A stretch of 64,000 nt of DNA from the NCBI RefSeq assembly GCF_937967675.1, contig NZ_CALBSN010000090.1, positions 6,851 through 70,850 on the forward strand, in the 5' to 3' direction. The number at the start of each line of letters is the position of its first letter. Positions within the stretch are counted from its first letter, which is position 1. The notes beneath the pieces were generated by a model. It made no database searches. It was not told where the DNA came from and saw nothing but the letters and a program-made list of their open reading frames with translations. Both the position numbers and the translations under genes were made by a program. This stretch comes from an uncultured Flavobacterium sp. Its GTDB lineage: Bacteria; Bacteroidota; Bacteroidia; Flavobacteriales; Flavobacteriaceae. Below are positions 38,387 to 59,314 of this stretch, one piece after another.

Positions 38387-38450
38387 ATTGTCCTTGAGAA
38401 TTAATAACAATGTTTAATTAAAACGCAGTTTACGAAATAAATTTTTATTC

Positions 38451-39212
38451 TTACCATAAATGCTTTGGTCCATCAATAGATTTTCGAATTAAATTATCAT
38501 AAGTTCTAATCTTAATGTTTTGTTTTGAAAAACTATTATTTAAATACATTAACCTCTGTTTTTCTCTTTCATTAAGTTTGCTCCATCTTCCTAAAACTAT
38601 TAAATATTCAAAGGTACAATATTCATTTCCACCAAATCCATTCCATAAAGCTTCTAATTGATTTTTCGAACAATAAATAAAATTTCCTTTTTCACCTTTT
38701 TTTGGAAATTTAGGAGATTCTTTCAATAAACGGAATGAAGTATTAAAGAAAGTTTGTTTATTTGATTGAATCCATTCATCCCAATCGTTAATTTGCCCTA
38801 AAGCAATTTGCAATTTATTAGCTGGAGTTAATTTTTTGGTAAATAATTTATCGTTAGGTCTTTCAATTTCAATTAGTAAAACTCTGCAACCACCTTGACT
38901 AACGCTAAAAATAGCGTAATCTGCAAAATTAAAATTACTAATTGGAGGCTTCATTAAAATCCCTAGGTATGTTTCATCAGAAGATGGAGCAAGTCTAAAT
39001 AGGAAATGAGAATTTTGAGATAAAAAAAATTGAAAGCTTTCTTCAGATTCATCTTTCAATATCAATTCGGCAAAACCCTCTATTTCTTTAAAGCTTGGTG
39101 ATTTAGTTAATTTATGAACTTTGTTTTCATCTCCGAGTATAAGAGGGTCAAATATTTCATTTAATATTTCCTGAATATTTTCTTTCATTTTCGTTTTTAT
39201 AAGTTTTAACAT
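38451..39212 (-). CDS. Short Shedu-like (DUF4263) nuclease-family protein
   Basis: ESFQFFLSQNSHFLF … ADYAIF … LLIEIERPNDKLF … ANKLQIALGQINDWDEWI … YLIVLGR follows the DUF4263 core order as I remember it. Confidence 0.55.
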   Translation of the reverse strand: MLKLIKTKMKENIQEILNEIFDPLILGDENKVHKLTKSPSFKEIEGFAELILKDESEESFQFFLSQNSHFLFRLAPSSDETYLGILMKPPISNFNFADYAIFSVSQGGCRVLLIEIERPNDKLFTKKLTPANKLQIALGQINDWDEWIQSNKQTFFNTSFRLLKESPKFPKKGEKGNFIYCSKNQLEALWNGFGGNEYCTFEYLIVLGRWSKLNEREKQRLMYLNNSFSKQNIKIRTYDNLIRKSIDGPKHLW

Positions 39213-39372: not shown

Positions 39373-39795
39373 TTATTTTTTTCTGTAACTCATTAAAATA
39401 GCATTTCTAATTTCGTTGATTAGGTGGATATTTTTTGCGTGGTGAGCTTCTTGTTCTTGCAGCAGCTTGAGTGCTTGGATGTTTTTATGATGCAACTCGT
39501 GTTCACGCATCAATAGGGTTGCTTTTGGATTGAACTCTTTTTTGAATTCATAGAGGGATAAGAACGGAATAACCGAACCGCGAAGAAAAGGCATCCAGAA
39601 TTTGGATTTCCATAGGCTAATGGCTATCCAAAAAATGTCCTCTTTTTGAGCTTCGGTTTGAAATACAAGTACAAAGCTGTTTGTAAAAGCTTCATTGCTA
39701 GGTTTTCCGCTATTTAGTCCTTTTGATAATACGAAAAAGTGCGGTTTGGCATAGTGCGCCCCAGGTTGATGGGTTTTAATAAAAATAGTGTCCAT
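39373..39795 (-). CDS. Hypothetical protein (140 aa)
   Basis: I chose the start at the internal M (MDTIFIKTHQPGAHYAKPHFFVLSKGLNSGKP…) because the tracked N-terminal extension runs into the G-rich non-coding segment. It resembles small proteins I associate with Bacteroidota conjugative or mobilisable elements. Unverified. Confidence 0.5.
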   Translation of the reverse strand: MDTIFIKTHQPGAHYAKPHFFVLSKGLNSGKPSNEAFTNSFVLVFQTEAQKEDIFWIAISLWKSKFWMPFLRGSVIPFLSLYEFKKEFNPKATLLMREHELHHKNIQALKLLQEQEAHHAKNIHLINEIRNAILMSYRKK

Positions 39796-39849
39796 AGTAC
39801 AAGGATTTAACAGGTTAACTTCCTTCGTCTTTCCTTCGTGATTGCCCGA

Positions 39850-40800
39850 AATGTGAATGGAAACCGAGATGCCCCACACACATTTTTGCAAAAGAAAAAA
39901 GGAAAAAAAGAAAGCCCTTTTGCCTTGTGGAGGGTTTCAAAAAAGCAAGTTTTACGGGTAAAATACTACCCTTATGCGTCTGTGGAAACGCTAAGTGGAT
40001 GTGGTGGTTTTGAAAATGTATGGGTGGAGATTTTATCCGGAACCGAAGGCTTGAACTTGCTTTTTTGAATACCCGGAACAAACCTTTGGCTTCTTTTTTA
40101 TCCTTTTTTTTGTAAAAATGTTTACCCAAAATGTTCTTATGAAATGAGGTTTTAGGGGTGTTCAATCGGGACTTGTGAATAAGGGTGTGTTTTTTTTTTT
40201 TTGCTAGACGACCTCGACTACGCTCGGTTTGACAATATGGTTTTGTGAAGATGAGAAAAAAGAAAAACACACTCTTGTGATAGTTTGATTTTTGAGGATG
40301 CTTTGAAAGTGTTCAATATTCAGTTTTTAGTGTTCAGTGGAGAGTGTGAATTGGAAATGGGAAGCATCTTCAAAAAACAATGCAAATTACGTTAGCGGTA
40401 GCGTTCCTTTTCTTTTTCGGGTGGGTGCGGCTGGGAGCGGATATTTTACATAATAACCCTTATAACTTTCAGGGGGACTGCGTGGGGTGTTGGGAATGAA
40501 TTATAAGGTTTATTATGTAATAATAGCTTGGGAGTGGTTTTTGTGTGTTTTTAGCGTTTGTTTTTGGGATTGGGTGTAAGTGGATAAAAAAAGGCGGACT
40601 GTGCGCGAGGGGTTGGGAAAACAGGGAGCCTTTTTTTATTGACTTACTTTGGGTAAAACAAGTGCTAAAAACACACAAAATACCACAGGAGCGTTGGGGA
40701 GCGTTGGACTGGGTGGGTGAAATTACATCAGCGATAGCGTGCCGATTTTTTTACATGAAATTAGCGAAATGAAGCAAACAAATAATTGATGCTAGGAATA
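39850..40800. other. ORF-poor, G-rich (plus strand) segment with internal repeats
   Basis: Only low-complexity ORFs on either strand, with G-runs (gggtgggtg twice), a 20/24-identical 24-mer pair and a 20-bp inverted repeat. Composition is clearly different from the flanks. Confidence 0.6.
40446..40520. repeat. 20-bp inverted repeat (19/20) with a 35-nt G-rich loop
   Basis: ttacataataacccttataa (40446-40465) against ttataaggtttattatgtaa (40501-40520). Confidence 0.85.
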
Positions 40801-40943
40801 CTTGGACTAGGAGCGATTTTTGTGCAGGTGAATTAGTTAATGAGATAGGTCACTTGTACTTAAGATATTTGTTTAAAAGCTTTGTAATCTATATACTTCG
40901 GTGAATTGGTAAAATATTAGATCTTCCTAATATTACAAAATTA

Positions 40944-41891
40944 TTAAGGTTTTGTATAGTTTAAAATATCAAAAGTTAACTTTGAAAATGGTCTTTTATA
41001 ATAATATTGATGATTAAAATTTGTTCCATAAAGGGTTGCTCTTAATCGACTTAATCTAGGTTTGTTTGCTAAAGGTATTTGATTACTAATAGCACTTATA
41101 TAACTTATTGGGTACATTCTTTGTTTATTAAGAATATCTTTTATTATTTCTTTATGAGTTTTGTATCTTTCTAGTAAACCTATAGTTTCGATAGATTTTT
41201 TAAATTCTTCTTTGTACTTAGTTTTAATTAGAACTAGATTCAATTCTAATTTACTTGTATCTGTAATAAAACCTGCTCCAATTGGATTTAATAGAAAAAA
41301 ATAGGAATTATTAACATTGACATTAAGATGAGGATTGAAAAAATCTGCATTTTGATTCAACTTAACAAAATTACAGGCTTTACAGCATGGCACTAGATTA
41401 AAGAATGAAATAGCAAGAAATGGATAATCTATTTTGGAATAAATATGATCCCAATCAAATGTTCTTCTAATAGGAGTTACACTTCCTCTATATCTAAATG
41501 AATATGTGAAGTTTTCGTTACAATATGGACAAGTGAAGATATCTAGATTATCAGCTAAATACGAAGAAGAGTATTTAATACCAAGTTTTCTATTTTCATA
41601 AATACCTTGAATGAAATAATTATACAGCGTTTCGAGGTCAAAATCTGTTTTGATTATGCTTTTATCAGTTAAAGGCAGTGTGTCAAAATAAGTTTTAATT
41701 TCATATAATTTTAGAGGACTAGCTTTTAATAAATCTTCAAAATTATTGATGATGTTTCCAAAATGTAATTTCACCAAAGCATCTATTTTTTTAGTACTAT
41801 ATTTTTTTGCAGTTGTATTACAATAGTCCAGAATAGATTCTGAATGAGTTTCTAAAAAAGATTTGTAATTTGAATAGTGGACACTAATCAT
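40944..41891 (-). CDS. HNH-type nuclease, PtuB-like (Septu-like partner)
   Basis: CPYCNENF … DWDHIYSKIDYP … FNLVPCCKACNFVKLN gives the CxxC…DH…N…CxxCN HNH geometry. The start lies 1 nt after the stop of the upstream ATPase. Confidence 0.6.
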   Translation of the reverse strand: MISVHYSNYKSFLETHSESILDYCNTTAKKYSTKKIDALVKLHFGNIINNFEDLLKASPLKLYEIKTYFDTLPLTDKSIIKTDFDLETLYNYFIQGIYENRKLGIKYSSSYLADNLDIFTCPYCNENFTYSFRYRGSVTPIRRTFDWDHIYSKIDYPFLAISFFNLVPCCKACNFVKLNQNADFFNPHLNVNVNNSYFFLLNPIGAGFITDTSKLELNLVLIKTKYKEEFKKSIETIGLLERYKTHKEIIKDILNKQRMYPISYISAISNQIPLANKPRLSRLRATLYGTNFNHQYYYKRPFSKLTFDILNYTKP

Positions 41892-41892
41892 T

Positions 41893-43773
41893 TTAATTCG
41901 TTTCTTTATTGTTATTTATATCTGTTTTGATAAACTCGTAGTATTCATCAAAATTTTTCATTTTTTGAAAATCAATCATTTTTTGAATCTCATCTCGAAT
42001 TAAAGATTCTCCAATTAACTTATTGAAATTCTCAACTTCAAGTATGTTTACAAAATCGGATTCCTCATTATTAAGAAACTTTATAGCTTGATTAATTTTA
42101 TCAAAGGCAAACTCACTAATAAACTCCTTAACATAAAAACCATCATTAAAAAGTTCGAAAATATTTCCTCCAAGAGTTGGTAAGTGATTTTCTGATTTAG
42201 AAACTTTACAATAACCATTCTCATCTTTTATTAAAAATATCAGATTGTGTTTTGGAATATCAGAAACTATAAATGGAGAATGTGAGGTTATAATCATTTG
42301 AATTCCCTTATTAAACTTTTTAGCATAAAGTTGAAAGAACTGAAATAAAGTATTAATATATTTTCTCTGCCACTCAGGATGTAGATATAATTCTCCTTCA
42401 TCAATACTAATGATTATATTGTCCTTATGAGAGTATTTAAATGCTTCATGAAATTCTGATAATTGGTATAAAATAGCATCTTCACCTGAACTAAAAGGTG
42501 TAATACTGTAATTTATTAGAGCTTCTGATCTGAAATCTGTTATTAAAAGTATTTCTTTTAGAAATTTCCATAAATTCTTGTTTAAGGATAGTTCAAAATT
42601 TCCATTACCAAAAAACTCTTTAGATTCTGATATTTCAATGTTTTCAAGTAAAACATCTAGATTCTTCAATAAGTCATTTATTTTATCAATTTCATAGTTT
42701 TGTTTTTGACTTTTTTGAGTTATTAAATATTCATATATAGAATTGAAAATATTATCATCTAAAGAAAGTGATTCAACAAATGCTGATACATTCTTTAGAT
42801 AACCAAATTCACCAGTTCGTTTAAAAAAATCATTATAGAAGGCAAAAAATAAGTAATGAAATTTAATTCCTTTTTTAAGCTTTTCTTTAAAATTGACTTC
42901 TTCATTATATAATTTAAAACAATGCTTAGATATGTCTGCTAATCTCTTAAAATCATATTTAGAACTTTCAATCAATTTAATTGTTTCTGGGAAAATATTT
43001 TCATTGAACCATATTGTTATTTTTTCCGGAAATTTAATATCTCCTATAATTGAAAATTGATTTTCAAAACTATCAGAAAGAAAATTGACCATTCTTTCTA
43101 ATCTTTCATTCTGATATATAGATTGTAAATTGAAGCTTTCTTCTAAAAATAAATAGGTTTCATTACCTTCCTTCTTTTTATTGTAATCTTTTAAATATTC
43201 AGAAACCTTACTAGGTGAAAGTGATTGGCGTAACTGATAATCAACCGAACGGTTTAAAGGATTGTCTAATCCTAAGTAGTTTACGTTTTGGTTTGAACTT
43301 AAATTTGAATAAAAAATTAAATCAATTTCTTTAAAGGGATTTATGTTTTTTTTTTTGATTATTTTACCATTTTCTTCAGAGAATATTCCTTTCTCAGGAA
43401 GTGAAATGTTAATAGTTTGTTTTTTTCCAAAATGGGAAAATGTACTGACATAATCAATTATTTCATATGAGTTATCTTCTTCATTTTCAATAATGACAAC
43501 CACATTGTTTACTAATGGTTTTTCAGCAGCAATTACATTTATTAATTTTAATAATGAACTTTTCCCTGAACCATTTATACCTATAATTCCAGATATATTT
43601 ATTATTTCAGAATTACTAAATAAGTCGTAATAATCATCTGTATTCTGAATACTTAAATTTAAAATTCTTTTCTCTTGGTCAAAATTGAATTCGTAAGTAT
43701 TTCTACCTCCAAAATTAAAACCTTGATTTTTAATTTTCATATAATCTTCAACCCAAATTGCAGCTAATCTCAT
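41893..43773 (-). CDS. ABC/OLD-like AAA_15/21-type ATPase, PtuA-like
   Basis: Walker A GINGSGKSS (about aa 66-72), signature-like SSGE, Walker B IIISIDEGELYLHP and H-loop ITSHSPF. Confidence 0.65.
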   Translation of the reverse strand: MRLAAIWVEDYMKIKNQGFNFGGRNTYEFNFDQEKRILNLSIQNTDDYYDLFSNSEIINISGIIGINGSGKSSLLKLINVIAAEKPLVNNVVVIIENEEDNSYEIIDYVSTFSHFGKKQTINISLPEKGIFSEENGKIIKKKNINPFKEIDLIFYSNLSSNQNVNYLGLDNPLNRSVDYQLRQSLSPSKVSEYLKDYNKKKEGNETYLFLEESFNLQSIYQNERLERMVNFLSDSFENQFSIIGDIKFPEKITIWFNENIFPETIKLIESSKYDFKRLADISKHCFKLYNEEVNFKEKLKKGIKFHYLFFAFYNDFFKRTGEFGYLKNVSAFVESLSLDDNIFNSIYEYLITQKSQKQNYEIDKINDLLKNLDVLLENIEISESKEFFGNGNFELSLNKNLWKFLKEILLITDFRSEALINYSITPFSSGEDAILYQLSEFHEAFKYSHKDNIIISIDEGELYLHPEWQRKYINTLFQFFQLYAKKFNKGIQMIITSHSPFIVSDIPKHNLIFLIKDENGYCKVSKSENHLPTLGGNIFELFNDGFYVKEFISEFAFDKINQAIKFLNNEESDFVNILEVENFNKLIGESLIRDEIQKMIDFQKMKNFDEYYEFIKTDINNNKETN

Positions 43774-43796
43774 GTATTGTTTATTATAAGTCGTTT

Positions 43797-44558
43797 TTAT
43801 GCTAACCCAGTATAACTTAATTTATCATAATATTCAGATGAGTTTAATAAAATCATCGGAGCATCAATATAAAAATCATTATTAAATCCAAATTTAAAAA
43901 ATACAGCATATTTATTATGTGGTGGCAAAAAACTTTCCATGTAATCATTAAAAATTTCAACTTGAAATTTTAAAGCTGTGTTTTTTGGAATTATAATTTC
44001 ATTATTTAAAATAGTGTTTACAGTTTCTCCATCTTTAGGTAATCTAATTTTGTATTTGATTGTTGGTCTAAGTAATGTTGGTATTTCAATCATTGGTCCT
44101 GATAAACCAATTGGAAGTCTTTTGTTTTTTAGTTCAATATTAGTTAGTAGAATAGTTTTGTCAGAATTATTGATAAATGTAAAATTGAATATTGGAAATA
44201 GTGATTTAAAGCTAACTGCTTCAAAAGCATTCTTGGTTTCTTTAATAGCTTCCCAACCGCAATTTTCATTATCAATGGTTACAGAAATAAATTGAATATC
44301 AGCATTTTTATTGATTAAATTATTCTTCCATTTTTTTACTTCATCTATTTGAATGTCTCCTTTTGTGATTTTAGAATGACAAATTGGGCAAAGCAAAATA
44401 AGATTATCCATTGAATTATTATTTGGGTTTTCATCAATATGATGAATTTCAAAATGTCCAACATCTTTATTTTCACAATTAGGACATTTCGAGTTTATTT
44501 CTTGTTGAAGCATTGCTCTGACTTTGTTAAGCTGAGGAATCGGAACCCTTTTTTTCAT
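43797..44558 (-). CDS. HNH endonuclease domain protein with uncharacterised C-terminal domain
   Basis: CPNCENKDVGHFEIHHIDENPNNNSMDNLILLCPICHSKI in the first roughly 65 aa. The remaining roughly 185 aa carry no motif I recognise. Confidence 0.7.
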   Translation of the reverse strand: MKKRVPIPQLNKVRAMLQQEINSKCPNCENKDVGHFEIHHIDENPNNNSMDNLILLCPICHSKITKGDIQIDEVKKWKNNLINKNADIQFISVTIDNENCGWEAIKETKNAFEAVSFKSLFPIFNFTFINNSDKTILLTNIELKNKRLPIGLSGPMIEIPTLLRPTIKYKIRLPKDGETVNTILNNEIIIPKNTALKFQVEIFNDYMESFLPPHNKYAVFFKFGFNNDFYIDAPMILLNSSEYYDKLSYTGLA

Positions 44559-44569
44559 GTTATTATTTA

Positions 44570-47500
44570 TTAAATTGTCTTTAAAGTATCCATAACTTTA
44601 TTTGAATTTAATCGTAAGTGGTCAATTTTTAGCATATCATCAAAAACAGTCAAAGCTTTTTCAATTTGTTTTTTGTTTGCATTAAAATTATTGTTTAAAC
44701 TGCTATATATTGATAAAACTAATTGAACGGGCTCTGCATCATAATGCCCCCTATCTTGCACAGTTATTACTTTATTAAATTTCATATTTTTTAACAATTC
44801 TAAACATTCATTAGGATAATCTTTTGCACATTGTAACAAATACTGTAAAAAATATCTTGGTTGATTTCTGAATAATATTGTTTTAGAATATTTCTTCATA
44901 AAAGGAAGCAACTCCTCAAAATTTGAATTATTAAATTTTCTTAAAATTAAAGTTGAGTAAGAACTTGCAAAATCATCATCTATTTGATTTATAAATTCAA
45001 ATAAAATATCTAGGCATTTTTCATTAATTATTTCCTTCGCAAATAGGTTTTCTTCTGCAATATGCAAAGCTTGTAATTTTGCTTTCTTACTACTATTTAT
45101 AAATCTGTTATAATATTGCTTGTTTGTATCGTAACCTAATAACCAACTATGAACAATTAAATAACTACCTTTGTCATGTAATTCTTCATTATCAATGACT
45201 TTATCCATTAATGGTAGCATATTTAAGTAGAACTTTTTATTAAAGTAGCTAGCCGATTTAAAGCAATACTTAAGTATTAAGGCGTCTTTTGTATCCGTTA
45301 GTTTAATGAAAATTTTAAAAGCTCTGTCAATATCTAAATAATTGAGATATGCAAGGTTTAACAATATCGCAACTTTTACAGAAGTTTGTTTGTCATCGCA
45401 AGCATTTTCAACAGTAGTAAAAATAGTATCGCTAAATTGAATGTTATAATAACAATGAATTATCCTATGAATTGCTGCACCTCTCACTGAATTTAAGCTA
45501 TCAAAATGAGGGTCTGTAGGATTATTACTTTTTTCTGGATGTGGGTGATTCAATGCTAAATTAGAAAGGTATCCTAATATTTCATTATCTATAACTTTTT
45601 CCTCAATAAAGTAGCTTACGTTCCATATTGAACTCAAAGTATTTGATAAATCGAGATTGAGCTTAATTAATTTTAAATAAAGTTCTTTAACTAATCTCGC
45701 ATCGAACTTCCCTTTAATTAAGCCATCAATACCCGATGAAATATAATCTATCGAAATATTTTGAATATCAAATAGATCCTTAACTAGAGGATAAAATTTA
45801 ATCGGATCATTTGTTACCTCTTCTCTAAAACTATTAGAATGCTCACGTTTCCCACCCTTAAAACTATCGTTAAATCTATCTCTTTCATAATAATCATTAA
45901 ACATTAAAAAACTTTTTTTCCAATCAATTAAAGTCATTTTTTTATATGCACTTAATTCAAGAGGTGGACCAACAACTCCAGATGATATATTACTTCTATC
46001 TAATTGTTTTACATTAAGCTTACCAAATTTTCTAAATAATTCTTGATGAGTTCTTTTTAAAACAGGAATAGATTCCATTTCAGTCTTAGGCAAGCTATTT
46101 ATAAATAAATACTTTTTCTTTCCATAGAACCCAAGTGCTGGTTTTCTTATATTATTACTGTCGTTGTAATAATATATATCCGCAGGGTGTTTTATTGATA
46201 AAATAATATTTGCCAATTCTAATTTTTGGCTTTCAGAAAAAATACTAAAACTTTTAGAAATTAATTCTCTCAAGTATAGTTGGAATTTATCATCATAGCC
46301 ATTAAATCCATTTTTAGAATGAATGATTTTTATGAATTCAAAGACTTCTTCTTTATATAATAATGGGATTTCTGTTAGACCTAGAATTAAAATTTTAAGA
46401 TGCGAAATAGAATTTGAATCTTTATGTTTTTCATAATAGTTCTTGAAAAACAATTTGTGTTTAGATTTAGATTTGATATATTTTATAAGCAAATTTTCAA
46501 TTATATCATCCGCATTTTCTTTTATATCACTTTCAAATAATTCAGAGAATTTTGAGTTTTTATACAATGGACTATCTTCAATATCACCCCCTTTTTCATA
46601 TTTATTATTATCTACTATCTCGTCAAAAATTGAATGAAAATAAAAGAAGCATAAATCTGGATTGATATTATTTATTTTCTCAATTAAACTACTTTGCTCA
46701 TTAGTAAAGTTTATTGTAAATGAATGTTCTTCGAAACATTTTAAAATGATTGGTTTTAATTTATCAAATACAAAGTTGGGATAATAATTGAAAATTTTTT
46801 CTAATATCTTATAATACCAAAAGTTATCTCTGTTTTTATCTTCTATATTGAAATGAAAGTATTTGTCAAATAATACTAATAATTTTTCAAAGGACCAATC
46901 ATCGACATTAATCAAAAATCTATTTATAAAATTTATCTTTTCATCTGATTCAGGAAGCTTTTCAATAACATTTAGGATTACATCTAAGCCGTCTTTTCTA
47001 TTATTTATAAATAAACGGAATAACAATGCTAGTCTCATTTCTTTCTGCTTCAAATAATCGTACTTAAGTGAAAGCCCTTGCTTAATAATTTTATTTAAAA
47101 CTAATTTTTCATAAAAATTGATTTTCCAATCTTTTTGATAATCAAAGTATTTCAATGGAATGTTTTGATTAACAATAAACTTTAACCACCCCAAAGAAAA
47201 AATTGAGTTTATGAAAAGTCTGGTTAAGTCAAAATCAGTCAAAATGAATTTTGATACAATATTTTTTTCTTTATTTGTGGGATTTTTTACGTCACCCAAA
47301 CTTGTTATAACTAAAGTTTTAATGTGAAACCTAAACTTTGATGAAGTTATAAGCTGAGTTATTGTTTTGCAATATTCGTCATGGTTATACTCTCTATAAT
47401 ATTCAGTAACCATTTTAATGATTGATCGAACATATAGACTTTGTTTATTTTCATTAATATAGTTACTTAATGATTTTTTATTTTCAACAAATTGCCTAGA

Positions 47501-49012
47501 AAATGTATAATCATAAAATGTTTGATGGAAAAATTGTAATTCATTGTTGTTCTCAATTAGCAAATGATTACTTTTTAAATAATTTATTTCTTTTGAATAT
47601 TGATTTTCAAAAATATTACTGATTGTAATTTGCTGATTCTGATACATTCCGTCTGCTATTTTATACAAAACAGATTTTAATTGTAATTCACTTTTGCTGT
47701 ATATCAGTTGTTTCCATAGTGCATCATATAAATCCTTCAATGACGACAAAGTATCTATATTAATCTTGCTTGGTAACCTGCAAAATATGTCTAAATGATT
47801 TGGAATCGCTAATAATTCTAAAAATTTATCAGAACAATCATTAATTCCATATTTCAATAAAACTTCTTGAACTTTTTCTTTAGATATTCCAGTAATTTTG
47901 ATTTTTGAATATTCATTAGATTTATAAATACGCAATTCAGCATCATAGTTTAAATCGTAGCTTCTTGTAGATATCACTACTCTAACATTAGAATAGAAAG
48001 ATAAATCGTATATTAATCTATTATAGGTTTGAATGAATTCCCTATTTGTTGATAATGTTTGTGAAAGCGCATCTAATTGATCAATTACAATTACTAGAGC
48101 TTTATTTTCATTTTTATAAAGCTGAACAATTTTTTCAATTGATATATTCTCTTTTTGAAATATTTTTTTTTCTAATTCAATTCTATCTGACGCATAATAT
48201 TTATCTGCCTTAATACCTAGTACGTTTGTATTATTTTGTTTAAGTTTTAGTAATAAGTCTTTTAGAACTACTGTTTTACCATAACCTTTTTCTCCTTCAA
48301 GAATAAATATATTTTTTTGTTCACTAGTTAAATCATTATTAATCCAATTATATATAGCATCTGTTTCACTTCTTTCAATATGGGTATCTGTATTTTCTCC
48401 AAAAAGAGTTGGTACATTTTCAAGATAAAAATTTGCTTTATTAATTTCTATTTGGCTTTCATCTAAAGAAATGTTGTTCGTTATGGTTTTATGAATATCT
48501 TCAACTTTTTTATCAATATCTGCTATTTTTAAGGAATCTTCAATTTTAAAAACCTGATTATAAAGATTATGTGTTTTGAATAAATCAATTAAATCATTAC
48601 CGTCTTTTAATATGATAAAATCATCCTTTAAATTGTGTTTAGACTTCATCGAATCTACCCATTCACACCACCATTTATTCTGTTTTAAATCTAAAGTTCT
48701 CGGAATACATAATATCCATTTCTCTGTTACAAATTCCCCTGAATTAATTACAGTATTAAAAGAGTCTTTAATTTGTTGTTTTTGGGAAGAACCAAAATCT
48801 TCTAGAAAAAATTTACATTGAATGACAGAAATTGGTTCAACACCAATATTACCAATAAAAACATCTATACCGCCATCCCCAACGGATATTTTAACTGTTT
48901 TGACATTCCTATCTTTATAAATAACATTAAACAAGGTACCACAATCCCTTTCAAACGCGGCTCTTGCTCCCTCAATATTTACATTTCTAACTTTATAGTC
49001 CTGCCAATCCAT
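44570..49012 (-). CDS. Mrr-like nuclease - STAND P-loop NTPase - helical-repeat protein (Avs-like), 1480 aa
   Basis: aa about 19-67: AFERD…GDGGIDVFIG…VIQCK (Mrr_cat-type PD-(D/E)xK). Walker A GEKGYGKT (about 240-247), Walker B LVIVIDQLD (about 306-314), then VVISTRS. About 1100 aa of helical C-terminal region follow. Confidence 0.65.
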   Translation of the reverse strand: MDWQDYKVRNVNIEGARAAFERDCGTLFNVIYKDRNVKTVKISVGDGGIDVFIGNIGVEPISVIQCKFFLEDFGSSQKQQIKDSFNTVINSGEFVTEKWILCIPRTLDLKQNKWWCEWVDSMKSKHNLKDDFIILKDGNDLIDLFKTHNLYNQVFKIEDSLKIADIDKKVEDIHKTITNNISLDESQIEINKANFYLENVPTLFGENTDTHIERSETDAIYNWINNDLTSEQKNIFILEGEKGYGKTVVLKDLLLKLKQNNTNVLGIKADKYYASDRIELEKKIFQKENISIEKIVQLYKNENKALVIVIDQLDALSQTLSTNREFIQTYNRLIYDLSFYSNVRVVISTRSYDLNYDAELRIYKSNEYSKIKITGISKEKVQEVLLKYGINDCSDKFLELLAIPNHLDIFCRLPSKINIDTLSSLKDLYDALWKQLIYSKSELQLKSVLYKIADGMYQNQQITISNIFENQYSKEINYLKSNHLLIENNNELQFFHQTFYDYTFSRQFVENKKSLSNYINENKQSLYVRSIIKMVTEYYREYNHDEYCKTITQLITSSKFRFHIKTLVITSLGDVKNPTNKEKNIVSKFILTDFDLTRLFINSIFSLGWLKFIVNQNIPLKYFDYQKDWKINFYEKLVLNKIIKQGLSLKYDYLKQKEMRLALLFRLFINNRKDGLDVILNVIEKLPESDEKINFINRFLINVDDWSFEKLLVLFDKYFHFNIEDKNRDNFWYYKILEKIFNYYPNFVFDKLKPIILKCFEEHSFTINFTNEQSSLIEKINNINPDLCFFYFHSIFDEIVDNNKYEKGGDIEDSPLYKNSKFSELFESDIKENADDIIENLLIKYIKSKSKHKLFFKNYYEKHKDSNSISHLKILILGLTEIPLLYKEEVFEFIKIIHSKNGFNGYDDKFQLYLRELISKSFSIFSESQKLELANIILSIKHPADIYYYNDSNNIRKPALGFYGKKKYLFINSLPKTEMESIPVLKRTHQELFRKFGKLNVKQLDRSNISSGVVGPPLELSAYKKMTLIDWKKSFLMFNDYYERDRFNDSFKGGKREHSNSFREEVTNDPIKFYPLVKDLFDIQNISIDYISSGIDGLIKGKFDARLVKELYLKLIKLNLDLSNTLSSIWNVSYFIEEKVIDNEILGYLSNLALNHPHPEKSNNPTDPHFDSLNSVRGAAIHRIIHCYYNIQFSDTIFTTVENACDDKQTSVKVAILLNLAYLNYLDIDRAFKIFIKLTDTKDALILKYCFKSASYFNKKFYLNMLPLMDKVIDNEELHDKGSYLIVHSWLLGYDTNKQYYNRFINSSKKAKLQALHIAEENLFAKEIINEKCLDILFEFINQIDDDFASSYSTLILRKFNNSNFEELLPFMKKYSKTILFRNQPRYFLQYLLQCAKDYPNECLELLKNMKFNKVITVQDRGHYDAEPVQLVLSIYSSLNNNFNANKKQIEKALTVFDDMLKIDHLRLNSNKVMDTLKTI

Positions 49013-49016
49013 AATT

Positions 49017-51383
49017 TTATAGATTTATTTTGTCATTATCTTCAATATTAATTTGAACCTCTTCTCTTAGTTTAATATTTGAATGTAAAAAGTTTCTATC
49101 CGCTAAAAGTTTAGTGACTTCATTATATACTTGTTTTTGACCTTTTGTATCACGAATGGTTACAATAAGTGTAAAATCTTGGTTTAATTCTTCTCCATCT
49201 TGAATTGCTAATGTTTCAGCAAAATCTCTATATGTGCCTTTAATCTTAGCATACCATTTTCTATTACTAGCCAAACTATCACGTTGTCTAGCATCTTTCA
49301 TTTCACTTAAATTAACTGAATACTTTTTTACAGGTTGATACTTTTTACCATAATTGAGTAATACTCTTTCGCGTGCATATTCACTCTCGGTATCTTTAAT
49401 ATGTGCACTTTTGTAATTTGAATCAAGTAAAATATTTTGCGTGTCTTCTGGACCAATTTCATTAAGAATGTTAGCTTTAGTAGTGTCACGTTCTTTTATG
49501 TTTTCATACGTACCAAACATTAATTCTAAATTTGATTGACAATATTCTGCACCTTGTTTTTCTCTCAATACTGGTTGGCCAACTAAGGTAATTTTAATTT
49601 CCCCATAGAAAAACCCATCATCATCTATTAAACTTTCAGGAAATGGAAATTCTAGTATTTCAATAAATTCACCACGATTAATATTTTCTTGTAGAATAAG
49701 TGTAATTTCATGTGGGTCATTATAGATTATTTTATCAGCCGATTCAGGAATTCCAAATCCCATTTGATTTACTCTTTCTCTTATAGGTAGAGCAACACCA
49801 GTAGGATATTTTGCAGAATGAATTGCCAATGCTTTTAGTAATGTAGGATTAAATTTTTCCTTAATTTTAAAACTTAATTCGGATAATAAAGATGTTACTC
49901 TAGGAGTTGCAAAACTTGTTCCTATTATTTTTACAGCATTACCGTTATGATCTATCGCATCAACTCCATTTTGAATTGTTCTACCAGCATTTAAACCAGC
50001 ATTTCCACCAAACGAAACCAAATCAGGTTTGATGCTGTTTGCGGGACCTGGTCCAATTCTTGTGAATGGAGAGGGATGATTAATTTCAGCTAAATCATAA
50101 GTCTTTTTTGAATGAGCAACTGAACCTACAACTAATGAACGAACTGAATCTCCAGATCTAGCTACTCTACTTTTGGGATGACCTTTTTCAAAGTTTTTAC
50201 AATTGCCTGTAGATTTGCAAATAATAACATCATTTGTTAATTGGATATCGTCTAAAGCTTTGCCAAAATCTGAGAAATCATTTATGTCTGACTCTGCTGC
50301 TGTACCAAGAGATAAATTCCAAATTTTTATATGATTATTTTTTTTAATTGCTTCTCTTATATTTTCAACTAATTCATCCTCATCTATAGTTTCTTGTTTT
50401 GAGTCAGGAAATACTGTAGCATCAAAAATTTTACAACCTGTGTTTCCAGTCCAATTTTTATTTTGTAATTGATCTCCATATATAATGACACTTGAAACAC
50501 AAGAACCGTGCATCGGATCAATTAAATTGTCTGGGTATGATGAAAATTTTTCTTCTAATAACCAAGGTGCTAAATATGAATTTTTAGACACACCTGAATC
50601 TAACACACCTACAATTGGATATTCAATTCCTTCAGTTGGTAGTTTTACTTCTGCAGCTTTATCAGATTCAACGCTGTCAATTTCTACATGATATTTAGGC
50701 ATAAAAGTTATAGATTCTAATGCTTCAAAATCAGATATACTATCTAGAACTACTTTAGAGGCGTTTTTAATCTTAAAGATTATTAAACCGGGTGAATAAT
50801 TAACTTCTTTGGCTTCGATATTATTTTCTTTGCAATAATTTAAAAATACAGTTTTTACAGATTGATTTAATTCAAAATTTAAAAAATCAATTAATGATAT
50901 TTTTACATTTTGATTTTCTTCAATTTCAGCTATATATGGTTTGAATATTTCAACTGATTCAACAGCAGAAATACCTCTCGCATTTTTTGTATAATTTATG
51001 ATATTGTTTTTTATTGCAATTCCTTCTTCAACACTATCAACTTTTACAATTGCACTGTTAGAATCTAAAAAACCTATAATGTTATTTTTAGTTACTTTCC
51101 CATTAAAAATTTTTTGAATATCTTTTCTATGGGACTTTGCAATAGCATTATCATCTATATCAATTTTTAAAGTCGCTGGTATAAAACTTCTTGATGATTT
51201 CCTTTCTTTAAAATCACCTATTAGCTCATCAATAGGGCCAATAAAACTTTCAGCTCTTTCAGCTAATGACGGTCCTGACAACTCCCATTTTGGTATGCTA
51301 TCGTTACCACCGCCCTCAACTCTTCTATCATCAATTTTTTGCCTTTTTTGAAAAAGCTTTATTGGTAAATTCTTCTTTGCCAT
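49017..51383 (-). CDS. Subtilisin-like S8 serine protease, IetS-like
   Basis: Catalytic motifs VGVLDSGV (D262), MHGSCVSS (H292), WNLSLG (N356) and GTSFATPRV (S490). Flanked by roughly 250-aa N-terminal and roughly 250-aa C-terminal extensions. Confidence 0.75.
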   Translation of the reverse strand: MAKKNLPIKLFQKRQKIDDRRVEGGGNDSIPKWELSGPSLAERAESFIGPIDELIGDFKERKSSRSFIPATLKIDIDDNAIAKSHRKDIQKIFNGKVTKNNIIGFLDSNSAIVKVDSVEEGIAIKNNIINYTKNARGISAVESVEIFKPYIAEIEENQNVKISLIDFLNFELNQSVKTVFLNYCKENNIEAKEVNYSPGLIIFKIKNASKVVLDSISDFEALESITFMPKYHVEIDSVESDKAAEVKLPTEGIEYPIVGVLDSGVSKNSYLAPWLLEEKFSSYPDNLIDPMHGSCVSSVIIYGDQLQNKNWTGNTGCKIFDATVFPDSKQETIDEDELVENIREAIKKNNHIKIWNLSLGTAAESDINDFSDFGKALDDIQLTNDVIICKSTGNCKNFEKGHPKSRVARSGDSVRSLVVGSVAHSKKTYDLAEINHPSPFTRIGPGPANSIKPDLVSFGGNAGLNAGRTIQNGVDAIDHNGNAVKIIGTSFATPRVTSLLSELSFKIKEKFNPTLLKALAIHSAKYPTGVALPIRERVNQMGFGIPESADKIIYNDPHEITLILQENINRGEFIEILEFPFPESLIDDDGFFYGEIKITLVGQPVLREKQGAEYCQSNLELMFGTYENIKERDTTKANILNEIGPEDTQNILLDSNYKSAHIKDTESEYARERVLLNYGKKYQPVKKYSVNLSEMKDARQRDSLASNRKWYAKIKGTYRDFAETLAIQDGEELNQDFTLIVTIRDTKGQKQVYNEVTKLLADRNFLHSNIKLREEVQINIEDNDKINL

Positions 51384-51384
51384 C

Positions 51385-52473
51385 TTATTCTACATTTAAA
51401 GCGTTTCTAACTTGTCTAATTGATATATCTAAATAATTTGCTATTTGTTTTTGAGGAATATGACTATCGTTTAAAAATTTAATCATTTCTTCAAATGAAT
51501 ACCTGTTGTTTTTTATGTATTTAAAATATTCAGAAAAAATATCTTCATATTCAAAATCTGTCTTTTGGATTATTGCTCTATAATATGCACTATTGATTAT
51601 TTTAATTATTTCAGAGTGAGACAGATTATTCATATATGTTTTTAGTACTTCAAATTTTTTTTCATCTGTAGCTAAATCTGAATCAATCTTTTTAAAATAA
51701 ATTTCTAATATTTTTTTTATTTCTTCAGTATTTGGCTTATTTACATTTATAACTTTTTCGAATCTTCTCCAGATTGCACTATCTAACAATTGTTCATGAT
51801 TTGTGGCTGCAATTAAAATTCCGTTCTCTAAAAATTCGTCTATATTTTGTAACAAACTATTAATAACTCTTTTTAATTCTCCTGTTTCTTGATTATCATC
51901 CCTTGCTTTAGCTATAGCATCAAATTCATCTAAAAATAAAATACAGGGTTTGCTTTTTGCATAATCGAATAGTTTTCTGATATTTTTAGCAGTGTTACCT
52001 AATAATGATGATATTAGAGAATCGAATCTTGCAACAACAATTGGTATATCTAATTCTTTAGCAATGTGTTTAGCAATGGTAGTTTTACCACAACCAGGAG
52101 GACCATATAATAACAAAGAAAGGTTAACATCTAAACCCCTGCTTTTTATTTCATTTTTTGAATTAACTAATGAGATAAAATTATTTACTGGATCACTAAT
52201 GCTTTCTGAAACAATTGCATCAAATTTAATGTCTTGTGGAAAAATTATATCTGCAATATTTAATCTTGTATCATTATCTACAGGAGCATCAAATAATTGG
52301 TCTTTAAAAACAGGCAACCCTTTGGAGCCTTGAATTGTTTTCAAAATTTTATCTGCAAGTTTATTATCTCCATCTTCTCTAAGTTTTTTTACAAGATGAT
52401 TAGAGTAATTAATTACTTTTCTTTGATCATTGTTTAAACCGCCTTCAATTATTTTTATTAGTTCAGTATACAT
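51385..52473 (-). CDS. AAA+ ATPase, IetA-like, with C-terminal HTH-like tail
   Basis: Walker A GPPGCGKT (about 124-131), Walker B ILFLDEFD, sensor-1 IAATN and Arg finger region WRRF. C-terminus QKQIANYLDISIRQVRNAL. Confidence 0.75.
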   Translation of the reverse strand: MYTELIKIIEGGLNNDQRKVINYSNHLVKKLREDGDNKLADKILKTIQGSKGLPVFKDQLFDAPVDNDTRLNIADIIFPQDIKFDAIVSESISDPVNNFISLVNSKNEIKSRGLDVNLSLLLYGPPGCGKTTIAKHIAKELDIPIVVARFDSLISSLLGNTAKNIRKLFDYAKSKPCILFLDEFDAIAKARDDNQETGELKRVINSLLQNIDEFLENGILIAATNHEQLLDSAIWRRFEKVINVNKPNTEEIKKILEIYFKKIDSDLATDEKKFEVLKTYMNNLSHSEIIKIINSAYYRAIIQKTDFEYEDIFSEYFKYIKNNRYSFEEMIKFLNDSHIPQKQIANYLDISIRQVRNALNVE

Positions 52474-52502
52474 TGATGTAAATTTATTTGGGTTTTATGA
52501 TA

Positions 52503-52510
52503 CAAATATA
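52503..52510 (-). promoter_or_regulatory. -7 promoter box (TAnnTTTG) for the defence array
   Basis: Plus-strand caaatata is TATATTTG on the minus strand, 30 nt upstream of the ATG at 52473. Confidence 0.5.
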
Positions 52511-52513
52511 ATC

Positions 52514-52564
52514 AAATCGTAACACAAAATCAATAAATCGTAATTTTATTTTGTAAAATCGTAA
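52514..52564. promoter_or_regulatory. Three perfect AAATCGTAA direct repeats spaced exactly 21 bp
   Basis: Copies at 52514-52522, 52535-52543 and 52556-52564. A degenerate CGTAAT copy at 52602 stays in the same 21-bp phase. Confidence 0.6.
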
Positions 52565-52737
52565 TAAATATATTTAAAAGTGTTGTAAAATAAGTATTTA
52601 GCGTAATTAAATTTTTAAATATTGATATTTTACTATTATAAATAATATCCCAATTGCAATTTACTACAGAATGTGTAGTGTTTTGCGAATAGTATATTTT
52701 TTAAGCTTTGGCAGTAAATTTGATTTATTGCCAAAAC

Positions 52738-52956
52738 TTAACTTTTCATTTCAATGTCGATGTAAGATTTTAGATTATACAATTCGATTTGGTTTTCATC
52801 GTCTCCTTCCAATTGTCCAATTTCAATAAACGCGATATCATTAGCAAATGATTTTTCTCCAATTAGATGTTCGATGTGAACATAAACTGCCTCTCGAAGT
52901 CTTGGGTTGTCAATATCACTGGAATTTGCAACTTGATTGATGAAATCATTTTGCAA
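52738..52956 (-). CDS. Small acidic hypothetical protein
   Basis: 72-aa ORF with no recognised motif. Confidence 0.4.
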   Translation of the reverse strand: MQNDFINQVANSSDIDNPRLREAVYVHIEHLIGEKSFANDIAFIEIGQLEGDDENQIELYNLKSYIDIEMKS

Positions 52957-52978
52957 ATTCTAATCATTTTATTAATTA

Positions 52979-53350
52979 TTAGTAAAATGATTTCATATGC
53001 TTGATGTTGTCTTTTACACCTTTTGTTAAGTTATAAGATAAGGAAATAAAGAAACCTGGGACATAATTTTTATCGGATACATTTTCAATTGTATATTGAA
53101 GAGGTAAATTTTTTATCGATATACCAGAAGTTAAAGTTACTCTTTCATATTTTCCAACTGTTAGACTTGGTCTAACAAAAAAGTTATCAAAAGTAAGGGA
53201 TCCTTCAAAAGCGCTGACTCCAATTCCAATACTAAAACCCCAAGAAAAATAAGTAGCACTTCTCATACTTGCTGTAAAAAATCCAACAAAACTTGGAGTG
53301 AAAATCGACTTATCGTTTTTCATTATGACATTTTCATTGCTCTGATTCAA
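52979..53350 (-). pseudogene. Possible N-terminally truncated outer-membrane beta-barrel protein
   Basis: Alternating beta-strand pattern and an aromatic C-terminus (…MKSFY). The frame stays open upstream to about 53440 without an ATG or a signal peptide. Confidence 0.35.
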
Positions 53351-53705
53351 TTTAACAGTGTGTGAATATTTATCAGAATGTAAACTACCAGCAACTCCTA
53401 AACTAGCATCTAAACGAAGACTTGTATAGGTTGAGAAACATATTTAAAAATTAAATTTTCAGTAGTCATTAAATTTTTATTAGATTAATTAGGCTGTTAA
53501 TTTTTCAAAATTAATCTAATCATTTGGTTTGTGTTTGTGTGGTTTTAAATCAGGATGTTTAGGTTTTGTTTCAGGTGTGACTCTTCTTCTTTTGTCAGGT
53601 GTACCGTCTTCTTTTTTTGGTTTTGGACCTGGTTTTATCGCTTGAATTGTTTGCATGGTTTTACATTTTTAATTTTTATGAAAATTGTTGTTTAGCTTTA
53701 ATAAA

Positions 53706-53891
53706 TCAATTTGATTTTCTACTTCTTTTTACAGAATAGGTAGTACTAGGTTTTTCTTTAGCTTCTTTTTTTGTGACGTATCTACCTGTTTCTGCGCTTT
53801 TGTGCTGTTTGTAGGTTTTTGATTTTTTTTCTTGAGCATTGCTTGTTAAACTGAATGCTAGAGCTACTGCGAATAATAGAATTTTTTTCAT
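53706..53891 (-). CDS. Small secreted, highly basic peptide (61 aa), copy 1
   Basis: Signal peptide MKKILLFAVALAFSLTSNAQ followed by a Lys/Arg-rich 41-aa mature part. A near-identical paralogue lies at 59315-59500. Confidence 0.6.
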   Translation of the reverse strand: MKKILLFAVALAFSLTSNAQEKKSKTYKQHKSAETGRYVTKKEAKEKPSTTYSVKRSRKSN

Positions 53892-54276
53892 GATGTATTT
53901 AGTTGTATATAAATGACTCCTAAAATAATATGTTTTAACTGTATATAATTACGGTGTTTTGCTACAAAATATTACGGTTTTACCGTAAAAAAAACACATA
54001 AAACACCGTAATTTTTTTAACTGTATAGTCATTACTTTGGTTGCTCAATTAATTACTAACCAAAACACAATTATTATGAATGAACAACTCCAGAATGTCA
54101 GACAAAAGGTATTCTTTGTCTTGTTCTTAGCCTCCTTTTTACTATTAGGAAGTGCTAAGGTTTACTCTCAGACTAATAGCGGGCTTGCTTTTTCTTGGGA
54201 TAAAGAAGTAGGCTGTCAGACTTATGATTATGATGACAGAAAGAAAGTTTTTATAGAAGATAATAGGAGAATCGGA
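53741..54276. repeat. Direct repeat copy 1 (about 535 bp)
   Basis: Aligns with 59350-59884 at a constant offset of 5609 (5608 after a 1-nt insertion near 54263), with only a few substitutions. Confidence 0.9.
53948..54012. promoter_or_regulatory. Nested palindromes built from TTACGGT/ACCGTAA half-sites in a divergent intergenic region
   Basis: attacggtgtttt (53948-53960) pairs with aaaacaccgtaat (54000-54012). Inner palindrome acggt-ttt-accgt at 53974-53986. Confidence 0.6.
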
Positions 54277-54351
54277 CTAGAAATCTGCGATATTTGTTTA
54301 GAAATCAGAGGCATTGTGGCAATAGCAATCAGCTTTCTTCTTCTTTATTAA
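54076..54351 (+). pseudogene. Truncated, frameshifted duplicate of the adhesin 5-prime end
   Basis: The first roughly 62 codons match 59685 onward (signal peptide, …WDKEVGCQTYDYDDRKKVFIED). A 1-nt insertion then shifts the frame and homology ends at 54276. Confidence 0.8.
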
Positions 54352-54811
54352 TTCTATTTTCATTTAGTTTTACAACTGATCCATCGTAAATAATAGTTCC
54401 TCTTTCATGAAATTGTTCTACATATTTTACTATAATAAATCTATCAATTTGGTTAAATGTCATACAAAGACTCTCAACAGTAATGACTTTGTGTCTCATT
54501 ATAATTTCAAGTATTTCAACATCGGGTTTTGTTGGTACTCTAGTTCCAACAGTTCCAACTTGTTGTTGCATAAATGAAACTTGATTTTTTAATAAATCAA
54601 AAGTTTCTTCATTTAGATGTTTTAGATTTGTTTTAATTTCTAATAATTCTTTTTTTAATTTTTCAAAATCTTCATCAGATTTTTTACTAACAATGCTTTT
54701 TAAATCTTCAATTTCTTTGTTACGAGAACCATAATAAAAATACATTGAAAGTAATAATGAAATTATTGCTAATATATCAGCAGAGATAGATAGTAGATTT
54801 ATGTTTCCCAT
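54329..54811 (-). CDS. Membrane-anchored coiled-coil protein with wHTH-like C-terminus
   Basis: 160 aa: an N-terminal TM (ISADILAIISLLLSMYFYY), a coiled-coil stretch, and a C-terminal EILEIIMRHKVITVESLCMTFNQIDRFIIVKYVEQF region. Confidence 0.55.
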   Translation of the reverse strand: MGNINLLSISADILAIISLLLSMYFYYGSRNKEIEDLKSIVSKKSDEDFEKLKKELLEIKTNLKHLNEETFDLLKNQVSFMQQQVGTVGTRVPTKPDVEILEIIMRHKVITVESLCMTFNQIDRFIIVKYVEQFHERGTIIYDGSVVKLNENRINKEEES

Positions 54812-54813
54812 AT

Positions 54814-55089
54814 TTAACTATTATTAGTCTTCATCCAATTATATTCTTCATTGGTAAATCCAAATCCTGCCCATTCACCTGATAATTTAGCAACAAAAAT
54901 TCTGTCATTTTGATCTATAAACTGTTTTAAATAATCTCTAATAGCAGCACAGTTTGTATTATTAGAAGCAATTAACCAAACAGAACCAGATTGATGCCAC
55001 CAATTACCGTAACTTTGTATTGCGTTTGTTAGACTATCGTAATCTCGACCCGGATTAGAAAGATCATATGAAATTGTGTATATATTCAT
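54814..55089 (-). CDS. Small Cas2/VapD-like ferredoxin-fold-type protein (unverified)
   Basis: 91 aa. The pattern IYTISYDLS…RDYDSL…I…YG…SGSVWLI…IRDYL…DRIFVAKL mirrors the Cas2 beta-alpha-beta-beta-alpha-beta motif order. Its stop is 2 nt from the next start. Confidence 0.4.
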   Translation of the reverse strand: MNIYTISYDLSNPGRDYDSLTNAIQSYGNWWHQSGSVWLIASNNTNCAAIRDYLKQFIDQNDRIFVAKLSGEWAGFGFTNEEYNWMKTNNS

Positions 55090-59127: not shown

Positions 59128-59314
59128 TGTTTTAAAATTTAAATTTATAAATAATTTTTGTTTGCTTATTTCGGTAAACAAACTCTCTTTTCCTACATCT
59201 GTTTTTTTCTTTGAGTAACAGATAAATCTCTCAATTCGTAGCTACTGAATATTTTTAAGAACGTTGTATTATTCGCAATATTTTCACAAGGTTTCTGCTA
59301 ACTAGTAAATATCT

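Follow-up and report, generated by a model that had tools for sequence, protein, structure and literature searches.

Six minus-strand genes of a Flavobacterium defence island, read as stacked anti-phage modules

The stretch of DNA analysed here, which we call the window, is a 64,000-nucleotide (nt) segment of contig NZ_CALBSN010000090.1 from an uncultured Flavobacterium sp., and it carries on its minus strand a tightly packed chain of six genes. In order of transcription these encode the pair IetA and IetS (g1 and g2), a large protein that joins a nuclease to a STAND NTPase in the manner of Avs proteins (g3), a small HNH protein (g4), and the pair PDC-M62A and PDC-M62B (g5 and g6), a Septu-like ATPase and HNH nuclease. 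We consider it likely that the six genes are separable anti-phage modules stacked in a hypervariable defence island, each of which most probably acts independently. An original prediction, made from the letters of the window, had left a choice between known module types plus an HNH gene stacked under one promoter and a composite system reflected in the tightest junctions. The former was right in substance: IetAS, the Avs-type STAND gene and the Septu-like pair each occur separately in relatives, and the breakpoints of homology coincide with the module borders. Judged by sequence and by structural models, the chain comprises four separable units whose catalytic motifs are all intact.

Genes and signals of the chain

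The six open reading frames (ORFs) are intact, start with ATG (Table 1) and are separated by gaps of 1, 4, 11, 23 and 1 nt; their products are WP_297868791 to WP_297868796. The co-directional arrangement and its coordinates were thereby reproduced as originally described, and so was the remark that the chain is richer in A+T than the housekeeping block at 0-30 kb, with a GC content of 0.24-0.28 over 42-52 kb versus 0.30-0.37. Five consecutive gaps this tight are unusual, yet tight spacing is common in this genome: 6 of the 17 co-directional gaps of the housekeeping part measure 23 nt or less, and a run of five such gaps has p of roughly 0.005, assuming that the gaps are independent.

Table 1. 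Features of the window discussed in the text (aa, amino acids).
Feature	Coordinates	Strand	Description
IetA (g1), AAA+ ATPase, 362 aa	51385..52473	-	PADLOC IetA E=2.4e-134, residues 1-360 (full length); Pfam AAA 4e-36
IetS (g2), S8 serine peptidase, 788 aa	49017..51383	-	PADLOC IetS 1110 bits, residues 1-781; Pfam Peptidase_S8
g3, Avs-type, 1480 aa	44570..49012	-	Nuclease, STAND NTPase and C-terminal region
g4, 253 aa	43797..44558	-	Zinc-finger HNH nuclease (predicted), aa ~20-85, and C-terminal ApaG/Ig-like beta-sandwich
PDC-M62A (g5), PtuA-like ABC/AAA_15-type ATPase, 626 aa	41893..43773	-	PADLOC 4e-67, full length; Pfam AAA_15/AAA_21
PDC-M62B (g6), PtuB-like HNH nuclease, 315 aa	40944..41891	-	PADLOC 5e-41; weak PDC-M01B/PtuB matches
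Promoter/leader of the IetAS cassette	52474..52614	-	-7 box and three TTACGA motifs
Recombination scar, IetS/g3 junction	49013..49079	-	IetS 3' end in place of native g3 leader
First terminator-like hairpin past the chain	40576..40647	.	Inverted repeat I3, nested in I1 (40539-40564 / 40655-40680)
Block of promoter region, six genes and ~590 nt of trailing non-coding DNA	40352..52614	-	Shared with L080 as one segment
DUF4365-TPR gene	36473-38410	-	Neighbouring island gene (cargo and scaffold)
Shedu SduA	38451-39212	-	Neighbouring island gene (cargo and scaffold)
DUF6943 gene	39373-39891	-	Neighbouring island gene (cargo and scaffold)

IetAS is a two-gene system of anti-phage defence and plasmid stabilisation. 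The pair in the window resembles it in matching the PADLOC models over the full length, in the 1-nt gap between the genes, in having a conserved promoter of its own, and in its intact catalytic motifs: IetA has a Walker A (GPPGCGKT) and a Walker B motif (ILFLDE), and IetS has the Asp, His and Ser motifs of the triad. It differs in being a divergent Bacteroidota version that stays below the NCBIfam equivalog cut-offs (IteA, 353 versus 510 bits; IteS, 369 versus 900 bits), and by these scores the two proteins are divergent family members, not equivalogs of the NCBIfam model set. A helicase is an added essential component of ietHAS (PMC13069673), whereas there is no sign of such a third component here.

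The g3 protein begins with a PD-(D/E)xK nuclease domain (aa ~8-178), continues with a STAND NTPase with a winged helix (aa ~210-640), and ends in a conserved stretch of about 840 aa, presumably a sensor by analogy with Avs proteins. The nuclease domain is matched by the LmuA-type nuclease model of PADLOC (4e-22, aa 8-178), and Pfam nSTAND5/NACHT matches to the protein fall just below threshold. Residues E21, D50, Q65, K67, G243, K246 and D311 are invariant in the family, as are the Walker A (GEKGYGKT) and Walker B (VIVID) motifs. Searched against the PDB, the family profile has a sole match, to the NTPase and winged-helix region (E=9e-19) of entry 9n00, which is SeAvs7 (10.64898/2026.01.04.697583). 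Moreover, an AlphaFold2 model of aa 1-600, with a mean confidence (pLDDT) of 87, matches in its fold Avs4 (8dgf, 1e-18) and Avs3 (8dgc, 2e-11), and then NACHT modules of NLR proteins, NLRP3 included. No PADLOC Avs model matches g3 at E<=0.01, a weak PDC-M54A match being all that was obtained; the C-terminal region has no Pfam TPR match and no detectable similarity to solved or known sensors; and the accession of g3 is not among the entries in the available part of the supplement to the 2026 STAND survey. Thus, as judged by sequence and model, g3 has the architecture of an Avs protein without an assignment here to a named Avs family. It is like Avs3, Avs4 and Avs7 in uniting in one large polypeptide an N-terminal nuclease, a STAND NTPase with its winged helix and a long stretch at the C-terminus, and in having relatives that stand alone in many genomes, some of them with a swapped N-terminal effector (Mrr_cat); it is unlike them in escaping the PADLOC Avs models and in a C-terminal part of 840 aa that does not resemble known sensors. 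The family is widespread in Bacteroidota, with 307 protein clusters found at 90% identity.

The g4 protein has a Pfam HNH match of 1e-6, its motif CxxC...HH...N...CxxCH is invariant, and its HNH domain resembles those of group II introns and of IscB-type proteins. Its C-terminal beta-sandwich is conserved, with invariant residues of its own, and in an AlphaFold2 model (pLDDT 74) it finds only generic matches among ApaG/Ig-like sandwiches. The g4 sandwich is always C-terminal, in proteins of 465 aa or less, mostly behind HNH domains, and a Rosetta-stone search with 90 hits found it fused to no STAND protein. The family is not recognised at meaningful scores by the PADLOC v2 models; a search of 2.9 million viral contigs found no relative of it, and one of phage genomes nothing beyond a generic HNH match. 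About 45 metagenomic loci (L119-L164; related loci are cited here by number) encode proteins of about 226-245 aa that share with g4 only its HNH module, the N-terminal 82 aa (55-72% identity), and carry another C-terminal domain; HNH proteins that exchange their C-termini may thus form a wider family.

PDC-M62A and PDC-M62B are like Septu in combining a PtuA-like AAA_15/AAA_21 ATPase with an HNH protein encoded 1 nt away, and their motifs are present (Walker A GINGSGKS in the former, CPYC...DH...N...CCKACN in the latter). They differ from Septu in that canonical PtuA and PtuB are matched weakly and partially, the best full-length match being to PDC-M62A/B; for g5 the similarity to canonical PtuA is confined to the C-terminal part (about 1e-17), and the NCBIfam PtuA model gives 49 bits against a cut-off of 500. 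We found no mechanistic description in the literature on PDC-M62 or on HNH partners of Avs/STAND proteins. The domain assignments of the original prediction are thus borne out in a refined form, with a clear IetA and IetS, a nuclease-STAND protein, an HNH protein, and PDC-M62A/B in the place of a canonical Septu pair.

How might the chain be transcribed? A -7 box, TATATTTG, lies at 52503-52510 on the minus strand, 37 nt before the ATG of IetA, and a box at this -37 position is found in all five IetAS cassettes examined (those of the window, L080, L165, L169 and L170). It had been called the only clear -7 box, which holds for intergenic DNA but not overall, since the chain contains seven minus-strand copies of TANNTTTG (41366, 41738, 43065, 43710, 43889, 47608 and 52221), of which the one at 43889-43896 precedes the M62A start by 116 nt. 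In the whole window TANNTTTG occurs at chance frequency, 121 times versus 116.5 +/- 10.5 expected. Matches to sigma-70-type promoters number 94, against 94 in shuffled sequence. Since the counts of TAnnTTTG and of sigma-70-type matches are those of chance, motif scans cannot define promoters here. A terminator scan of 39500-54000 returned two sites, 52707-52735 on the plus strand and 53988-53972 on the minus strand, both upstream of the first gene, and no site within the chain; this agrees with the earlier observation of gaps free of terminators, an absence that is weak evidence because shuffled sequence yields merely 4.7 +/- 2.2 sites in the same scan. The first terminator-like hairpin past the chain, which looks bidirectional, lies about 300 nt beyond the M62B stop and has 27-nt arms with an A7 run and a T7 run on either side; the consensus scan missed it because its loop is longer than 8 nt. 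Read-through from the IetAS promoter is probable because the gaps leave no room for promoters, g3 has lost its native leader (see below) and no terminator appears until about 300 nt past the last gene. It is therefore plausible that all six genes are read from this promoter, possibly with the help of internal ones. Searches with Rfam (gathering threshold over 30-64 kb, E-value mode over 39.8-41 kb) and a scan for tRNA genes gave nothing relevant.

Three TTACGA motifs with starts at 52564, 52543 and 52522, hence spaced by 21 nt (52517-52564), precede the IetA -7 box at a short distance. L080 and L165 retain the exact motif at a single one of these sites, and L169 and L170 retain it nowhere; degenerate TTAC-type variants, again 21 nt apart, were noted there by visual inspection alone. 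The repeats could form an operator for some regulator.

Junctions and linkage in related genomes

Our comparison of the IetS-g3 junction draws on 79 Bacteroidota loci encoding g3 relatives, sampled at one genome per species. None of them has a canonical IetAS pair upstream of the g3 relative. Clustering of all flanking ORFs revealed no gene family that universally flanks g3, and genes weakly similar to M62 occur near it at 2 of the 79 loci; with intact solitary copies also present, the genomic evidence points to g3 working as a single gene. An 'Iet-like' AAA+/S8 pair at L026 was rejected as an instance of linkage, being only 27-34% identical and placed downstream of the g3 homolog in a non-canonical arrangement. 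Seen from the other side, IetAS cassettes that are 85-87% identical to that of the window occur elsewhere in three contexts, none with g3 downstream: what comes after them is the gene for a 1346-aa protein of unknown type together with Gabija-like genes, a GASH/DO-GTPase system, or no defence-like gene at all.

The DNA around the junction is informative as to how it arose. In the window the IetS stop codon lies 4 nt before the g3 ATG. Homology with the other IetAS cassettes ends at 49035-49056, 20-40 nt before the IetS stop, while at the other end the homology with L169 and L170 begins at 52611-52631. A different leader of about 60 nt, common to L085, L090 and L001 and apparently native, precedes g3 there; the window has lost it. 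The 4-nt junction is therefore a recombination scar, not an evolved coupling: where those three relatives retain the native g3 leader, the window has the 3' end of IetS. In L082, whose g3 is 89% identical, some 50-60 nt from the 3' end of IetS survive in front of a solitary intact g3, and IetAS itself has been replaced by other genes.

The linkage of g3 and g4 has more recurrence to it. The same 11-nt spacer is found in the window, in L080/81 (97%), in L090-92 (88%) and in L089 (g3 74%), and in L089 and L090-92 the flanks are unrelated and lack both IetAS and M62AB. Among the species-level g3 loci, on the other hand, 73 of 79 have no g4 and none has a co-directional one; g4 is convergent in the other six (five full-length genes and one fragment). 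Convergent g4 genes adjoin Mrr_cat-type g3 homologs at L006, L008, L011, L071, L075, L098, L099 and L102, and in the convergent pairs of marine Flavobacteriaceae the g4 homologs are 58-62% identical while the g3 homologs, which have another N-terminal nuclease, are 44-46% identical; because of this orientation, co-transcription is excluded there. Losses are found as well. In L085-88 (88%) g4 has decayed to a stub whose start codon is now ATA, and in L082 (89%) it has a GTG start and a frameshift; L001 (86%) shares exactly the g3 ORF (window 49013-44567), with homology stopping at the g3 stop codon and no g4. All of these loci have a full g3 ORF of 1480 aa. We also assembled a sample from the g4 side, of 15 well-flanked loci chosen independently of g3. 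Two of these adjoin g3-family genes and four adjoin other STAND proteins, namely an nSTAND3 protein (L104), Avs4-type proteins (L105, L172) and a 2157-aa NACHT protein (L173); the remaining neighbours are an MmeI_N-like 964-aa protein, a 933-aa unknown, Gabija/PDC-M01, Shedu, DUF2779/DUF2971 and other unknowns. Many of the junctions in this sample measure -1 to 25 nt. In L093/L094, for example, a g4 that is 85-87% identical at the DNA level lies behind the unrelated MmeI_N-like gene. The large neighbours of g4 have no module in common, apart from a distant similarity between L093_964 and L096_933. The hidden Markov model of the g3 NTPase is too specific for STAND families of the L104/L105 type, and its measure of adjacency, by which most g4 genes lie away from g3, refers to the g3 family only. 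Taken together, the comparison indicates that g3 does not need g4 and that g4 does not need g3.

What is shared with the closest relatives is the entire block. A blastn comparison of the window with L080 gives a single alignment of 12,278 nt at 96.1% identity (L080 6398-18653), between flanks of 72-79%; the block starts just after a hairpin, includes the IetAS promoter and ends beyond the hairpin at 40576-40647. The complete six-gene block occurs only in such near-identical relatives (96% DNA identity). Elsewhere homology extends to single modules or partial sets: g3 only (L001), g3 with stubs (L082, L085), g3 and g4 (L089, L090), and g4 only (L093/L094). A scaffold of DUF6943, DUF5675 and a 252-aa gene recurs with other cargo in L080, L082, L085, L090, L093 and L001, and RteC, an excisionase-type helix-turn-helix gene or an integrase lies nearby in some of the relatives that bear it. 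By this comparison the locus is a site of cassette turnover in a mobile-element defence hotspot.

Stacked modules and the alternatives

The sequence comparisons show in what order the chain was assembled. An ancestral g3-g4 pair had its own leader, and in this Flavobacterium clade g4 lay 11 nt behind g3 from early on; an IetAS cassette with its own promoter then recombined in upstream of g3, erasing the native leader, and M62AB arrived downstream of g4, the resulting product of 12.3 kb having later moved or recombined as one block. Each module would bring a mechanism of its own. IetAS elsewhere is a toxin-antitoxin-like pair whose S8 protease is the toxic effector and whose AAA+ ATPase restrains it (PMC13069673), and by analogy the protease encoded here would be held back by its ATPase. 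Avs proteins are switched on by a phage protein that they bind, upon which they assemble into oligomers with the help of NTP and their nuclease becomes active (10.64898/2026.01.04.697583). If g3 works as Avs3, Avs4 and Avs7 do, its C-terminal sensor would bind a phage protein and the protein would oligomerise in an NTP-dependent manner, which would activate the N-terminal PD-(D/E)xK nuclease to cut DNA and abort the infection. PDC-M62A/B may be, like Septu, an HNH nuclease controlled by an ATPase, and g4 a free-standing predicted HNH nuclease with a beta-sandwich domain.

Could the tight junctions instead reflect joint function? The boldest form of this idea is a composite IetAS-STAND-HNH system in which, for example, IetS processes or licenses the STAND nuclease and the 4-nt and 11-nt junctions serve translational coupling. 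The junctions are indeed very tight, that between IetS and g3 persists in the window and L080/81 with a trace in L082, and IetAS does gain extra essential components elsewhere, as in ietHAS with its helicase (PMC13069673). The orthologue search nevertheless failed to find the protease-to-STAND junction at any of the g3 loci or in any of the three close IetS contexts, where unrelated genes follow instead; it is by our reading a lineage-specific scar in the place of the native g3 leader, lost again in L082, where g3 stayed intact after IetAS was replaced. The composite reading is thus largely refuted by the comparative data, and we give it very little credence. For the STAND-to-HNH junction, which the original prediction had included in the composite, the outcome is divided: the 11-nt pair recurs and g4-type genes adjoin several STAND families, but losses occur on both sides. 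One may therefore ask whether g3 and g4 alone form a genuine two-gene system, with g4-type proteins as accessories of STAND sensors (a second effector, a regulator or a guard) and the rest stacked. The 11-nt junction is kept despite unrelated flanks, g4 adjoins Mrr_cat-type g3 homologs convergently as well as nSTAND3, Avs4-type and NACHT proteins, and it is better conserved than the adjoining STAND proteins. We still think such a system rather unlikely, as g3 has a nuclease effector of its own and is intact where g4 is decayed or missing, g4 also follows wholly unrelated genes, the convergent orientation excludes obligate co-transcription, the beta-sandwich is never fused to a STAND protein and the large upstream partners share no module. 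More generally, g4-type proteins may constitute an undescribed accessory class for diverse STAND/Avs-type sensors in Bacteroidota, recruited in trans as a second nuclease, regulator or guard, a proposal that we put forward only tentatively; if true, it would account for the neighbours of g4 from no fewer than four unrelated STAND families, for its occurrence beside them in any orientation, and for its being better conserved than the sensors.

A quite different view of g4 is that it is a selfish, homing-type HNH gene that inserts beside long genes, its adjacency to g3 being a matter of insertion preference. Both orientations, the many unrelated neighbours, the short junctions, the high conservation across genera, the frequent decayed stubs and an HNH domain like that of group II introns or IscB-type proteins would all fit; against this, the family is absent from the viral contigs and phage genomes searched, stays within defence islands, shows no conserved target sequence at its junctions, and has a conserved beta-sandwich whose invariant residues suggest a cellular function. 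We find this explanation improbable. Somewhat more credible, if still doubtful, is that the six-gene block is a selected defence cassette in which independent mechanisms are co-regulated for layered or broadened protection, so that it would travel in one piece. The identity of the block against its more divergent flanks, the single conserved promoter, the putative operator repeats and the lack of internal terminators argue for it, and synergistic stacks are documented: Liu-DS6 combines Pycsar with a type IV Thoeris system (PMC13069673). The chain is like Liu-DS6 and like the hotspots of defence islands in consisting of co-directional independent systems, possibly with shared transcription, held as cassette-like cargo between conserved scaffold genes. 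It differs in that synergy is documented for Liu-DS6 and would be conjectural for the window, whose combination is confined to near-identical relatives; those at 88-89% hold other combinations, that is, turnover is fast.

Several points weigh against the reading as independent stacked modules. The six genes are found together at 96% identity on several metagenomic contigs, and the IetS-g3 junction, by comparison of the two loci, already existed when the lineages of L082 and the window parted; the combination may therefore be a selected, functional one. The closeness of g4 to STAND genes (6 of 15 loci) is, by impression rather than by a rigorous statistic, more frequent than expected and hints at incomplete autonomy. 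Finally, PDC-M62 is to our knowledge a computational candidate system without experimental validation.

The surrounding island and what the chain implies

The island holds further cargo around the chain. Shedu and the DUF4365-TPR gene lie between DUF6943 and DUF5675 and are absent at that position in L080, which represents cargo turnover at the same scaffold. Between M62B and DUF6943 lies about 1 kb of non-coding DNA (39892-40943), C-rich on the minus strand, with long nested hairpins such as 40539-40564/40655-40680 and 40446-40465/40501-40520 and no Rfam match; the part at 40841-40437 is 94% identical to L082, and relatives keep the stretch in front of DUF6943. A structured RNA may lie here, or a region that serves the island scaffold in recombination or regulation. 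On the other side of the chain, a 72-aa ORF at 52738-52956 looks like the truncated rest of a 209-aa gene (blastn, 70% over 52911-52689), which is complete in L080, where it precedes IetA, and in L090, where it precedes g3. Farther along, two direct copies of about 580 bp (~53702-54276 and ~59306-59884), 96% identical to each other and both about 90% identical to L082 234-788, bracket a 5-kb segment containing a solo Cas2-like gene and several unknown ORFs. The Cas2-like protein (54814-55089, 91 aa, Pfam CRISPR_Cas2 1e-5) is encoded 2 nt upstream of a 160-aa ORF (54329-54811). There is no cas1 or array near it, nor any CRISPR array in 30-64 kb, and the two genes may be a Cas2-derived toxin-antitoxin-like pair.

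Other loci of the comparison have features of their own. L165-L168 carry an IetAS pair (87% identical) followed after 40 nt by the gene for a 1346-aa protein without a Pfam match and then by an OLD-like/UvrD pair of the Gabija type, a further tight co-directional stack containing an uncharacterised large gene. Directly upstream of Mrr_cat-type g3 homologs of marine Flavobacteriaceae lies a conserved, co-directional ORF of about 95-100 aa (L006, L008, L012, L014, L015, L022, L034, L047, L071 and L075), and genes of about 95, 211, 220 and 251 aa that recur near these homologs resemble a mobile-element backbone.

As an arrangement, the chain is a fresh instance of an already known kind, that of stacked defence modules. 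Its more general lesson is that a composite defence system should not be read from a common orientation and gaps of 1 to 23 nt alone: unrelated modules have here been joined ORF to ORF through recombination, with the scars still visible, which offers a calibration for scans that use the tightness of junctions. Two leads follow for the families involved. One is a widespread Avs-type family of Bacteroidota whose C-terminal region resembles no known sensor. The other, a modest one, is a conserved family of HNH/beta-sandwich proteins encoded repeatedly beside STAND NTPases.

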